Notes: a model not told the origin generated them from the letters alone. A stretch of DNA of 64,000 nt from Anaerolineae bacterium (GCA_034435375.1 DAOTXR010000048.1:272984-336983); one strand, 5' to 3'; shown: positions 19,597 to 23,088, counted from the first letter of the stretch. A program made the numbers and translations.

Positions 19597-22509
19597 CTAT
19601 TGCTCATCTCTTACCAGCCGGAACCCGATCAGTTGAACCCTCGCTTGCGGTTCACCTGGGCGGCGCTGCGTGCAGTGGATGTTCTGCCGCAAGCTGTCGT
19701 AGGCTCCACCTCGCAGGACACGCGGCCCGGGAGCAGTCAGGTCCTCACGTCCATCCTCAGACTGATAAGGGTAGCCCAGCATCAGGCTACTACACCACTC
19801 CCACACATTGCCGGCCATGTCGTAGATGCCTTCGGGGGTTTTGTCATGTGGAAAGATGCCAACCGCTGTTGTCTGCCCAACGCCGGCTTCACGGGCATTG
19901 GCGACATCGTCGCTGGCCCGACTTCCAAAGGGATATCTTCGATGCTCCAGACCGGCTGCTGCTCGTTCCCACTCTGCCTCGGTCGGCAGGCGGTAGGGTC
20001 TGCCGGTCTTTTTCTTTAGCCAGTTTGCGTAGGCCACCGCTTCATACCAGGTGACTCCCACTACGGGCCGGTTAGCAGTTCCCCATACAGGATCGTAGGC
20101 GTAGCCGCCCGGTTCACCAGCACGTTTACGCCACTCCCACCCTGCGCTCGTCCAATATTCTGATCGACGGTACCCACCGTCCTCAATAAAGGCGCGGAAC
20201 TGAGCGTTGGTCACCGGGAAGCGGGCCATCTGAAAGGGCTTGAGCGACACAGGGCACCGCTCTCCCTCATCGCCTATCTCGTAAGGTCCTCCTGAGATGG
20301 GCACCATCTCCGGTTCCAAGGAGCACACGCCAGGGCGAGGATCGCCCAGCCAGCCGAGCACGTCAGCGGCCTGGGCTCGCTCGATGGGCGTCAGATGCCC
20401 GCCTGTGACCAGAGCAACCAGTTGGTTGATGACCTGCAGCACAATGCGCTTGCCGACATATTCATCCTGCTCGGCTGCCGGACGACCTACAATAGCTAAC
20501 ATCTCTGCTGCCCACCACACCAAACGCCACCCGGCAGAGTCAGAGGGTGGAGCAGGAGGACACAACAGGCTAATGGCATCTAGAGGAATGTGGACGTTCT
20601 GTTGGTTGTAAACTAGGTGGCCCACTGCCAACAACAGCACTTCGTGCCAGATGTCGCCCTGGGTCGCCAGCCGGGCCACCCGACGCGCAAAGTCCCTGTC
20701 GGTGACCAAGTGCCGTCCGGCCAGAAACTCTTGGAACCCTCGGTGCAAGAAGGCGTAAGTCTGCTCACCCCGGCCATCCCTTCCACGGCTGACCAGCAAC
20801 CCGGCCTGTGCCTCGATGTACTCGCAGAACTTCTGCGCTTTGCCCCAATCGCCATCCAGGTAGATTTGTAGAATGCGCAGCACGTCGGCCTGAGGGATAT
20901 TGGCTGCCAGAGCTTGTTGGTCTTGTGTGCTGTGGGCGTGGAAAGCCACCTCGCACAGCCCATTGACCAGCCGCTCCTCGCGAGTCTGAAGCTGATCAAG
21001 GATACCTGGTTCCCATCCACCTGTGGCGAGCCGCTTAGTGCGCTGCCATTCCCACAGCAGCAGTTTCACACAGTCGTCGTACAGGCGGGCGCGCTCGCGC
21101 GGCAGTGTACCTTTGTAGGTGTGCACGAGGGCCATTACAGTCAGCAGCATGGGGTTCTGGGCCAGGTCGTGCAGGTGACGGGTAGCGTTACGCAGTTCCT
21201 CGGCCTTGACCTTTGCAAGACGTTCGCTCAAGTATCCTAGGCGAGCCAGATTGTTGTACCAGTGCTCGACGAATGTGTCGATGCTCTGCTGGCTCAGCGG
21301 CGCCAGTGTGACCGCTGGGAAGCTGGTCAACTGCCAGGCTGGATCGGTGTAAGACAGCACGCGGCAGGCGACAATGAACTGACTGCGTGGATAGCGGTCG
21401 GCAAAGTCAGTCACCGCATCCCGCACGATCTGGCGCAGCGGCGCCACCGTGATCTCATCTAGACCGTCAAAAAGCACCAGGCATAATCCGCGGTTGAGCA
21501 GGTCCAGGATACGACCGGCAAAGTCGCCCAGGTTGCGCTCAGCTAGCTGAGTTGTGATGTGAGACCAAACCATCGAGGCCGTACCACGCCGGGCATCTGG
21601 CGGGATGCTGCGCACAAAGTCGCGCAGATCGATCCTCACCGGCAGGAGCACCTCCCGCTTCCAGGTCACTGCCTTACGACGCCCCTGGCGGGGAACGGTG
21701 AGGCGCTCCAGATAGCCCCGCTTAGGGTATAGGCGTGCCCCGGCCAGACACAGTGTCAGAAAGTTGAGGAAGGTGGTCTTCCCTGATCCTGGATCACCGA
21801 GGATCACCAGCCGGCGATTGCGCAGGACGGCATCCAGGGCCGGCACCGGGACGCGGTCATCGAAGCCGTCTCGCTGTCGCAGTGCAGCCTGGGTTCGCAT
21901 AATGTCCAGCGGGACGTAAATTGTGTCGAGCCGGACATCCAGCGCCGAACGATCAGGCGAAGCCATATCCAGATTCAGCTCACCTAGCGGGATGCGATTA
22001 GCCACAGTGATCAGCCACCACAGGTATTCACGTTCCACATCGCTGATGGGGGCATCTTCTGACGGAGTCTGTTTGCCATAGACCAAAGTGTCGACGTGGC
22101 CGATCACCACCTCTCCCCTGAGAATGTCACGCGCGGCCGCCCCGCCGTGGATGACCGATGTGCCTTCGCCGACCACTGCGCCGGGCATCACATCGCCCGT
22201 TGTGTTCGAGTCGCGGCCCGTGACAGGCATCGGAGACGCATCAGGGTGAGGCAAGCGCGGGGGGGCCGAGGGTGCTCTGTCAACCACGTCACGCAATTCG
22301 TCGGCGATGACCATCCGCATCTGATCGATCAGCCGGGAGAGACGATCGTTTTGGTCAGCGCCCTTACCAGCAGCAAGCAGCGCCTCCAGCTCCTTGAGCA
22401 TCTCGCGCAGACGTTCCCGCTCGGAATGGCTCAGGTGTGGTGGATCGAGTGGCTGACCGTCGGAAGGTTGCATTGAGGACGGCCTCCGAACAACAGGCAA
22501 GTTAGACAT
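19597..22509 (-). CDS. STAND NTPase, NACHT-type, with C-terminal FGE-sulfatase (SUMF1) fold domain
   Basis: Pre-NACHT motif EREYLWWLITVANRIPLGELNL...LDTIYVPLDI. Walker A LVILGDPGSGKTTFL (about 21770-21800). Walker B CLVLFDGLDEI. FGE domain (about 19600-20307): RFPVTNAQFRAFIEDGGY, RPVVGVTWYEAVAYANWL, YRLPTEAEWERAAAG, GNVWEWCSS, RVLRGGAY, IGFRLV. The N-terminal ~150 aa is coiled-coil plus a Gly/Val-rich segment with no recognisable enzyme domain. Confidence 0.92.
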   Translation of the reverse strand: MSNLPVVRRPSSMQPSDGQPLDPPHLSHSERERLREMLKELEALLAAGKGADQNDRLSRLIDQMRMVIADELRDVVDRAPSAPPRLPHPDASPMPVTGRDSNTTGDVMPGAVVGEGTSVIHGGAAARDILRGEVVIGHVDTLVYGKQTPSEDAPISDVEREYLWWLITVANRIPLGELNLDMASPDRSALDVRLDTIYVPLDIMRTQAALRQRDGFDDRVPVPALDAVLRNRRLVILGDPGSGKTTFLNFLTLCLAGARLYPKRGYLERLTVPRQGRRKAVTWKREVLLPVRIDLRDFVRSIPPDARRGTASMVWSHITTQLAERNLGDFAGRILDLLNRGLCLVLFDGLDEITVAPLRQIVRDAVTDFADRYPRSQFIVACRVLSYTDPAWQLTSFPAVTLAPLSQQSIDTFVEHWYNNLARLGYLSERLAKVKAEELRNATRHLHDLAQNPMLLTVMALVHTYKGTLPRERARLYDDCVKLLLWEWQRTKRLATGGWEPGILDQLQTREERLVNGLCEVAFHAHSTQDQQALAANIPQADVLRILQIYLDGDWGKAQKFCEYIEAQAGLLVSRGRDGRGEQTYAFLHRGFQEFLAGRHLVTDRDFARRVARLATQGDIWHEVLLLAVGHLVYNQQNVHIPLDAISLLCPPAPPSDSAGWRLVWWAAEMLAIVGRPAAEQDEYVGKRIVLQVINQLVALVTGGHLTPIERAQAADVLGWLGDPRPGVCSLEPEMVPISGGPYEIGDEGERCPVSLKPFQMARFPVTNAQFRAFIEDGGYRRSEYWTSAGWEWRKRAGEPGGYAYDPVWGTANRPVVGVTWYEAVAYANWLKKKTGRPYRLPTEAEWERAAAGLEHRRYPFGSRASDDVANAREAGVGQTTAVGIFPHDKTPEGIYDMAGNVWEWCSSLMLGYPYQSEDGREDLTAPGPRVLRGGAYDSLRQNIHCTQRRPGEPQARVQLIGFRLVRDEQ

Positions 22510-22584
22510 GGCTGCATCTTACCTCGCTTTTGCCGGCAGACGTACTTCCCTCTAAAATAGTTGCCATCCCTAAAGGAGTCTCTA

Positions 22585-23088
22585 ATGTCAGACAAACCTG
22601 ATCCTAATCCAAATGACGAAAAAGAGGAAGTCGAAGAGAAGGGCTATGCCGTTGGTGGAGATCATATTGTGGTGCAGGGAGATGTAGGTGTAGGAGCCAG
22701 CATTGGACGGGGCTATGTTCAGGCAGATTACATCGCAGGGCGCGATTTGATCATTGCTACGGATGAAGTCCCGAAGGCCGACGACAAGAAGCAGTTTGCT
22801 GACCTCATGATCAAGCTGCGCGATCTGATCATCAAGGCTCACCAAGCCGGTGAACTCAGTGAACGCACTGCCAAAAAAGCGTTAGGGCATCTGGCTACGA
22901 CAGCCGAGCTGGTTGCAAAAGAAGAAAAGCCACCCAAAAACCAGATCTTGAGCCGGCTTCAGTACGTAGCCGACGTGCTCGATGCCGCGGTGGACTACTT
23001 GAGCACGAGCGGCGGCGCTGCCCGGGTGGTACTCCAGGCGCTGCCTATCGCGACACTGTTGATCAAGATCGCCAGCCGCTTATTCTGA
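22585..23088 (+). CDS. Hypothetical 167-aa protein between the two STAND genes (acidic N-terminus, short Gly/Val-rich beta-like segment, helical C-terminal half with hydrophobic tail)
   Basis: ATG 22585 lies 6 nt after AAGGAG (22573-22578). Visibly more AT-rich than its neighbours. Sequence MSDKPDPNPNDEKEEVEEKGYAVGGDHIVVQGDVGVGASIGRGYVQADYIAGRDLII...VVLQALPIATLLIKIASRLF. No family recognised. The stop overlaps the 3' end of the convergent gene by 9 nt. Confidence 0.6.
   Translation: MSDKPDPNPNDEKEEVEEKGYAVGGDHIVVQGDVGVGASIGRGYVQADYIAGRDLIIATDEVPKADDKKQFADLMIKLRDLIIKAHQAGELSERTAKKALGHLATTAELVAKEEKPPKNQILSRLQYVADVLDAAVDYLSTSGGAARVVLQALPIATLLIKIASRLF

Follow-up and report, generated by a model that had tools for sequence, protein, structure and literature searches.

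A small gene divergent from a NACHT-FGE receptor gene in an Anaerolineae bacterium: candidate effector of an NLR-associated amyloid-signaling-type pair

Immune systems of fungi, animals, and bacteria are connected by amyloid templating between a NOD-like receptor (NLR) and a killer protein encoded by a separate gene. The bacterial cases have been tied almost entirely to Bell-type domains carrying a C-terminal motif. Ten families of such motifs, the BASS families, with a length of some 25 residues and a high content of G, N, Q, V, and I, have been described (Dyrka et al., 2020, bioRxiv 10.1101/2020.01.06.895854). They belong to effector-NLR pairs of multicellular bacteria in which, for some motifs, the effector has pseudo-repeats and the NLR one copy, a two-versus-one layout described for HET-s and for BASS1/6; 91% of the described pairs are collinear (Dyrka et al., 2020). 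Bab/Agp, a pair using BASS11, forms an abortive-infection system in E. coli; the hydrophobic N-terminal helix of Bab is its most conserved part and is required for killing, and BASS11 was also reported with EAD7, TIR, CHAT, NACHT, and NB-ARC domains (Ibarlosa et al., 2024, bioRxiv 10.1101/2024.11.07.622273). In addition, two studies describe STAND-FGS receptors and present EADs as homotypic couplers that recruit effectors (Kaur, Burroughs, Iyer and Aravind, 2020, 2021; PMC7159879, PMC8195603). Here we analyze a stretch of 64,000 nucleotides from an Anaerolineae bacterium (GCA_034435375.1, DAOTXR010000048.1:272984-336983; hereafter the window, with positions counted from its first nucleotide), in which a small gene of 167 codons lies between two genes for STAND NTPases.

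The small protein shares a Gly/Val/Ile-rich motif with the N-terminal part of the NTPase encoded by the divergent neighbor, a NACHT protein ending in an FGE-sulfatase domain (NACHT-FGE). We favor, with moderate confidence, the view that the two form an NLR-associated amyloid-signaling-type pair, the small protein being an effector whose new domain is probably membrane-directed and whose parts stand in mirror-image order. The sequence facts stated in the initial annotation of this region are all borne out. The open reading frame (ORF) at 22585-23088 does encode 167 residues, does lie between the STAND genes and is AT-richer than they are (GC 0.52, against 0.60-0.65 in the flanks). Of the two Gly/Val segments then quoted, one is found in the small protein at residues 24-57 and the other in the 970-residue NACHT-FGE protein at residues 105-139, the C-terminal helix is hydrophobic (best 19-residue Kyte-Doolittle window, 1.68), and the stop codon overlaps the convergent HEAT-NTPase gene by 9 nucleotides (23080-23088).

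Similarity between the two motifs emerges from profiles. When seven small proteins were aligned to four NLR N-termini with hhalign, residues 21-56 of the small protein paired with residues 95-130 of the NLR at E 1.1e-5 (probability 82%, 35 columns), nearly gapless over 32-35 columns. Forty-one effector-side motifs, the window left out, gave E 1.9e-5 against six NLR N-termini, and a looser set-up with 43 motifs gave E 1.6e-4; one cognate orthologous pair reaches a BLASTP E-value of 5e-6 unaided. On the NLR side, the copy is a conserved island in a variable, gapped linker, where Gly110, Gly114, Gly116, Gly122, Gly123, and Ala125 are invariant. In the lineage of the window, these six residues stand in register with the effector motif. 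The NLR motif region is disordered in the AlphaFold2 model.

The specificity of the match was examined with hidden Markov models (HMMs) run against the 44,792 six-frame ORF segments of the 4.2-Mb genome. The effector-side HMM, built from 43 homologous motifs without that of the window, ranks the small ORF first (6e-14) and the adjacent NLR second (residues 98-120, E 0.052), the next segment having an E-value of 2.9. Conversely, the NLR-side HMM, built from five other NLR motifs, ranks the window NLR first (4.6e-8) and the small ORF second (E 0.14), followed by a segment at 2.3. The adjacent gene is the top non-self match in both directions, and this is not marginal. The effector HMM also singles out the neighboring NLR in two other loci, L015 and L021 (locus-level E 0.023 and 2.5e-4). 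The second STAND NTPase of the locus, a NACHT-HEAT protein, carries no motif copy and its N-terminus is unlike the small protein; judged from the sequences, only the divergent NACHT-FGE gene qualifies as motif partner. A word-indexed search for longer proteins with the motif profile returned effector-side family members only, with no NLR or Bab-like protein. Joint folding of residues 14-64 of the small protein with residues 88-148 of the NLR, run with alignments and without controls, scored 0.00 in both runs and argues neither for nor against binding.

The motif is followed in the small protein by a C-terminal four-helix bundle. A bundle-only profile retrieves 177 clusters at E<=1e-3, 109 of them at E<=1e-10, among 1.84 billion representatives, and the bundle ends at most three residues from the C-terminus in 150 of 157 proteins. 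These profile searches define the bundle as a new domain family, absent from domain-library annotation. In members that are long enough, a Gly-rich beta-type segment directly precedes the bundle, and it is of one of two kinds. Type 1, the kind found in the window, shows three short hydrophobic stretches with glycines between them and, at its end, an Ala-Gly-(Gly/Arg)-Asp core; in the consensus of 43 such motifs Gly, Val, Ile, Ala, Asn, and Asp dominate in an alternating pattern. Type 2 consists of two pseudo-repeats with a short helix between them. Longer members begin with EAD7 in 38 of 72 cases, and others with EAD1, EAD8, a caspase domain, TIR, or DUF4062; the EAD, caspase, and TIR fusions place the bundle module in the effector layer of conflict systems. 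In P0047, P0042, and P0158 (L018, L019), a caspase (Peptidase_C14), DUF4062, or TIR domain is fused before the motif and bundle; the contigs of L018, L019, L022, L023, and L024 are too short for a partner to show. Neither the small protein (P0001) nor the NACHT-FGE protein (P0002) itself has an EAD match in Pfam.

Pairing was then scored across the family by Smith-Waterman comparison of the effector motif with all six frames of the surrounding DNA (about +-8 kb), against composition-preserving shuffles; in the loci listed next, the N-terminus of the adjacent NLR is what the motif matches best. Among window-type effectors facing a NACHT-FGE receptor, the score is 72 against 38+-5 in L003 and 61 against 42+-4 in L006. 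Two effectors made of EAD7, a type-1 motif, and the bundle adjoin NB-ARC receptors: in L013, the NB-ARC-type gene is co-directional and overlapping, and its N-terminus copies the motif (94 against 42+-5); in L016/L017, the score is 87 against 38+-4. The type-2 effector of L014 is matched by a 1091-residue NACHT-FGE protein with one repeat copy near residue 180 (71 against 49+-5). Finally, and from a separate comparison, an EAD7-bearing effector in L025 (L025:6001-9231, GCA_020634245.1) adjoins an NB-ARC/TPR protein whose first 26 residues match a Gly-Asp-Lys repeat, located upstream of the type-1 motif in the effector (62 against 21.6+-3.9, 0 of 1000 shuffles). Each homologue with sufficient flank adjoins a STAND NTPase carrying a matching motif, in six further loci. 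These scores indicate that the motif type switches jointly in effector and NLR, the bundle staying homologous, and the two motifs of L025 that one effector can hold two different motif modules. The NLR copy is N-terminal in the distant relatives L013, L016/17, and L025. The two genes diverge in the window and throughout the six orthologous loci, but they are collinear and abutting in L013, L014, L016/17, and L025.

Three further observations concern these relatives. Gly-Asp-Lys repeats also occur in other members, for example P0136, P0148, and P0072. Type-2 members (L014:712-4866; P0015, P0016; about 50 clusters) have two pseudo-repeats against a single copy in the partner NACHT-FGE protein. 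Downstream of the effector P0035, the NLR is found in L016:7727-9836 as pieces of 165 and 556 residues, the latter with TPR, and in L017:2908-4284 as an uncalled open frame of 459 residues; the discrepancy suggests that at least one version is frameshifted, misassembled, or decayed.

The small ORF is a genuine, conserved gene under purifying selection. A search of 5.8 billion proteins recovered seven full-length homologues with 45-57% identity, those that are named coming from Anaerolineae-type Chloroflexota metagenome-assembled genomes, and 40 columns of the alignment are invariant. For one orthologue pair the ratio of nonsynonymous to synonymous rates (dN/dS) is 0.13; the motif and the C-terminal domain are both under purifying selection, the motif having 0.065 nonsynonymous differences per site (pN) against 0.447 synonymous ones (pS). 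The gene is present in a single copy in its own genome and is rare: of 401 genomes sampled in its class, 5 have it. In the first 32 codons, comparison of L004 with L006 gives hardly any synonymous change (pS 0.025) but pN 0.112, the opposite of the remaining gene; this may reflect nucleotide-level constraint beside the shared promoter, or small-sample chance. An 85-residue ORF on the opposite strand (22588-22845) was treated as spurious because the conserved frame is that of the plus strand.

The features of the small gene and of its neighbors are collected in Table 1. In the close subfamily, the protein starts with Met, a variable residue, Asp/Asn, Lys, Pro, Asp, and then Ser/Thr-Asn, with Met1, Pro5, and Asp6 invariant. 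Residues 1-61 are disordered in the AlphaFold2 monomer model made from a seven-sequence alignment, with a predicted local distance difference test (pLDDT) value of about 40. The predicted helices of the bundle span residues 65-87, 93-112, 118-142, and 147-166. The last one, H4, is the sole hydrophobic helix (mean Kyte-Doolittle value 1.34). Conservation in the family also peaks in H4, with 1.80 bits per column compared with 1.20-1.57 in the other helices, and the near-invariant positions of this region are Pro154, Leu159, Ala163, and the terminal Phe167. The small protein has no match in Pfam, NCBIfam, or PADLOC, and a Foldseek search of the bundle against the PDB returned nothing at E<=0.001. 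A wide VIA-align search found generic helical bundles only (top Z 13.8, in a range common for helical models). In the ESM Atlas, the shape search gave unnamed clusters and YicC-like C-terminal domains at a TM-score of about 0.5, and the feature search gave unnamed clusters, with DUF4404 and TCAD2 below 0.9.

Table 1. Positions of the small gene, its parts, and its neighbors in the window.
Feature	Position	Strand	Description and basis
Small gene P0001	22585..23088	+	167 aa; leader, beta motif, C-terminal four-helix bundle; translation
Shine-Dalgarno AAAGGAG	22572..22578	+	6 nt upstream of ATG 22585; read from sequence
Promoter-like site, -35/-10 type	22530..22558	+	in the 75-bp divergent intergenic region; consensus scan 9/12; weak
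Leader, polar/acidic, residues 1-21	22585..22647	+	alignment; AlphaFold2 pLDDT about 40-47
Gly/Val/Ile-rich beta-type motif, type 1, residues 22-57	22648..22755	+	ends in Ala-Gly-Arg-Asp core
C-terminal four-helix bundle, residues 65-166	22777..23082	+	AlphaFold2 pLDDT 86-96 from residue 71, mean 92
Hydrophobic terminal helix H4, residues 147-166, then C-terminal Phe167	23023..23082	+	Kyte-Doolittle, family conservation
NACHT-FGE-sulfatase STAND NTPase P0002, 970 aa	19597..22509	-	Pfam NACHT 5e-7, FGE-sulfatase 7.8e-47; divergent partner
NLR-side motif copy, P0002 residues 95-135	22105..22227	-	after helical hairpin (residues 28-78), before NACHT domain
NACHT-HEAT STAND NTPase P0003, 1358 aa	23080..27156	-	Pfam NACHT, HEAT_2; convergent with small gene
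Fourth module gene, 287 aa	27336..28199	+	N-terminal transmembrane helix and long coiled coil; ORF and translation

The small gene belongs to a conserved module of four genes, in the order NACHT-FGE (-), small gene (+), NACHT-HEAT (-), and a gene for 269-365 residues (+). This order and orientation are constant in six genomes (the window, L002/3, L004/5, L006-8, L015, and L021), and the outer flanks vary. NACHT-FGE and the small gene are divergent and 75 bp apart. The convergent overlap with NACHT-HEAT is kept but variable in length, from the 9 nucleotides of the window to 33 in L002 (8463-8495), 60 in L004/L006 (8481-8540), and 90 in L021 (8415-8504); no terminator-like hairpin was found in the window. 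The module thus consists of two STAND NTPases with different sensor arms, FGE-sulfatase versus HEAT, each divergently paired with a small unannotated gene, and the motif is common to the NACHT-FGE/small-ORF pair only. The fourth gene product has one transmembrane helix, a coiled coil of about 200 residues, and a tail rich in Pro and Asp. Its database matches are of coiled-coil type only (LmuB/JetC coiled-coil regions in PADLOC; OVT1 in Pfam, below cut-off), and it does not resemble the NACHT-HEAT N-terminus; it might act as partner of the second NLR on the membrane side. For the first 280 residues of NACHT-HEAT, a feature search gives a resemblance to the NNH3/NNH1 "NACHT N-terminal helical domain" families (0.96), which is a lead only. 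With the NLRs of the module, PADLOC gave P-loop noise only.

How such a pair might work can be outlined by analogy with the known systems. The small gene would encode the downstream effector of the divergent NACHT-FGE receptor, coupled to it through the shared beta motif of about 35 residues. A ligand would be sensed by the FGE-sulfatase-type C-terminal domain of the NLR, as the work of Kaur et al. (2020, 2021) suggests, and oligomerization of the NACHT domain would then gather the motif copies at residues 95-135. Clustered in this way, the copies could take a cross-beta fold and template the disordered motif of the small protein (residues 22-57), as in HET-S/NWD2, Bell-BASS, and Bab/Agp. The adjoining bundle would be destabilized or oligomerized, freeing its C-terminal hydrophobic helix, which would then insert into the membrane and kill the cell. 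For this pair, binding, toxicity, and the formation of amyloid are proposed by analogy.

Several observations count against this reading and are best weighed together with the alternatives. Taken alone, the window pair is not significant (BLASTP E 0.14). The similarity, which the initial annotation had called weak and tentative, is indeed so in the pairwise comparison but is significant at the profile level (hhalign E 1e-5 to 2e-4). The window NLR also falls within the range of the composition-preserving shuffles in the six-frame Smith-Waterman scan, and the two genome-wide HMM E-values of the window, only 0.05 and 0.14, are each marginal alone. Moreover, both segments are compositionally biased. 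One could therefore see here a chance likeness of two Gly-rich low-complexity linkers, the small protein being functionally unrelated to the STAND genes. This is very improbable in our opinion: shuffles are exceeded in five other loci, the profile E-value is about 1e-5, and the two genes are mutual top genome-wide non-self matches as well as adjacent, syntenic in six genomes, and switching motif type in step. A less radical proposal is that the type-1 motif belongs to the effector module itself, for self-assembly or auto-inhibition, that the NLR resemblance is secondary, and that coupling relies on co-expression, another surface, an EAD, or other motifs. The motif indeed stands directly before the bundle in all members long enough to show it. 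In L025, the type-1 motif beside the bundle has no NLR counterpart, the NLR N-terminus matching the separate Gly-Asp-Lys repeat, so that type 1 may serve the bundle itself rather than coupling; this locus is the chief argument for such a role. Six close orthologous pairs show no pair-specific co-variation, 185 of 720 permutations doing as well. However, the NLR N-termini of L013 and L016/L017 copy the type-1 motif itself (94 and 87 against about 40), and in the window lineage the conservation of the NLR copy, with its six residues in register, counts against a secondary resemblance; we regard this proposal as quite unlikely.

The motif might also mediate an ordinary one-to-one contact, for instance by beta-strand addition, instead of amyloid assembly. 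This would make the small protein a regulator or adaptor, acting as an inhibitor or guard of the NACHT-FGE N-terminus, as a bridge to the second NLR, or as a tether of the receptor complex with H4 as tail-anchor. A shared motif and conserved adjacency fit any homotypic contact equally well, and the module also contains a second NLR and a membrane coiled-coil protein. The position of the motif is a further difficulty for amyloid signaling, since it is internal in both proteins, not at a free end. The geometry is unlike that of any described BASS pair: there the motif ends the effector and begins the NLR, whereas here it occupies residues 22-57 of 167 in one protein and internal residues 95-135 in the other, the NLR copy beginning after about 90 residues; the genes are divergent here, whereas described BASS pairs are mostly collinear. 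In relatives, an adaptor (EAD7, 38 of 72) or enzymatic effectors (caspase, TIR) precede motif and bundle, so that the bundle need not be the effector in those proteins. As for H4, its hydrophobicity is borderline for a membrane span (family median 1.57) and, within a four-helix bundle, it could simply serve core packing; the predicted fold is generic and structure searches name no function for it. Other features are less easily explained by a one-to-one contact. An apparent richness in Gly, Asn, Val, and Ile, a span of some 30-35 residues, the lack of order in the monomer models, and the type-2 pseudo-repeats all figure among the listed hallmarks of amyloid signaling motifs. In addition, EAD7 recruits effectors according to Kaur et al. 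(PMC7159879, PMC8195603), which argues that what follows EAD7 is an effector, and the terminal hydrophobic helix is the most conserved part of the family, as in Bab, where it is needed for killing. A regulator or adaptor, the main rival reading, seems unlikely to us, though far from implausible. According to the initial annotation, the ORF product could be an adaptor, effector, or regulator in homotypic contact with the N-terminus of the NTPase, and this idea is supported in silico by the conservation of the ORF (seven homologues, purifying selection), by significant profile-profile similarity to the NLR N-terminus, and by the gene context of the homologues. The present analysis refines it in two respects: the partner is the NACHT-FGE and not the NACHT-HEAT protein, and the pattern fits NLR-associated amyloid signaling, a known paradigm that the annotation left unnamed.

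The locus points to a second effector family of 177 clusters, with inverted topology, internal motifs, and EAD7, caspase, or TIR fusions in relatives. More tentatively, and with somewhat less than even confidence, the bundle may be a membrane-executioner domain, triggered by amyloid and previously without a name. It would then mirror the HeLo/Bell/Babybell logic as an independent invention, and Chloroflexota and further multicellular bacteria would place it behind NACHT-FGE and NB-ARC receptors, using three or more interchangeable motif types as addresses. If amyloid signaling is indeed at work here, the search space for NLR amyloid-signaling systems would widen, the idea of a cross-beta switch freeing a terminal helix would receive an independent test, and the widespread, effector-less NACHT-FGE receptors would gain a plausible output.

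Compared with the Bell/BASS systems, the locus has the same general arrangement. A small helical-bundle protein is encoded next to an NLR gene, and a short motif is common, here at the profile level, to the effector and to the region preceding the nucleotide-binding domain of the NLR. In both cases, some effectors have pseudo-repeats where the NLR has one copy, and the host lineages are multicellular, Chloroflexota among them. The Ala-Gly-Arg-Asp core resembles, by eye only, a core in BASS1 sequences; the published BASS1-10 sequence sets lack three hexamers that typify the type-1 motif. The effector domain does not seem to be Bell-like: no HeLo, HeLo-like, or SesA match was found for the small protein in Pfam at E<=1, in libraries without Bell and Babybell models. 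In HeLo, Bell, and Babybell, the N-terminal helix is the hydrophobic one, carries an acidic residue at position 2-3, and is cupped by the others, and the motif is C-terminal; here the N-terminus is polar and disordered and the order is reversed, but the helix is far from the motif in both arrangements. The sensor also differs, as an FGE-sulfatase domain replaces the TPR or WD repeats of BASS pairs. It makes the receptor like those of Kaur et al., in which a STAND NTPase is joined to an FGE-sulfatase "FGS" domain and N-terminal adaptors draw in, by homotypic contact, effectors encoded elsewhere (PMC7159879, PMC8195603). No four-helix-bundle effector domain is named in keyword-matched passages of these two papers. 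Unlike EAD-coupled systems, the window protein and its NLR lack an EAD and have a short beta motif in its place.

The resemblance extends to Bab/Agp, where a neighbor activates a small helical cell-death protein by way of an amyloid motif common to both and where the terminal hydrophobic helix is also the most conserved part. The domain company of the present family, EAD7, TIR, NACHT, and NB-ARC, is largely that of BASS11, with a caspase-type domain here and CHAT there. The BASS11 positions Ile87, Gly88, Ser89, Val90, Asp99, and Asn100, as well as four Gly breakers, fit the type-1 consensus in register, which is a lead only. In contrast, the Babybell domain is N-terminal and the motif C-terminal in Bab, and the sensor Agp is a TPR-GreA/B-PIN protein, not an NLR. 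Finally, HET-S/NWD2 of Podospora anserina belongs to another kingdom, has no sequence relation to the present pair, and shows the reversed domain order, its HeLo domain having an N-terminal membrane helix. Yet, in that system too, a NACHT receptor has one motif copy before NACHT, and the adjacent gene encodes a helical effector, pore-forming in the case of HET-S, with a matching motif whose two pseudo-repeats, r1 and r2, opposed to the single R0 of NWD2, resemble the type-2 relatives described here. By analogy, the pair would share its logic with BASS/Bell, Bab/Agp, and HET-S/NWD2, and it fits a paradigm known from fungi and some bacteria.

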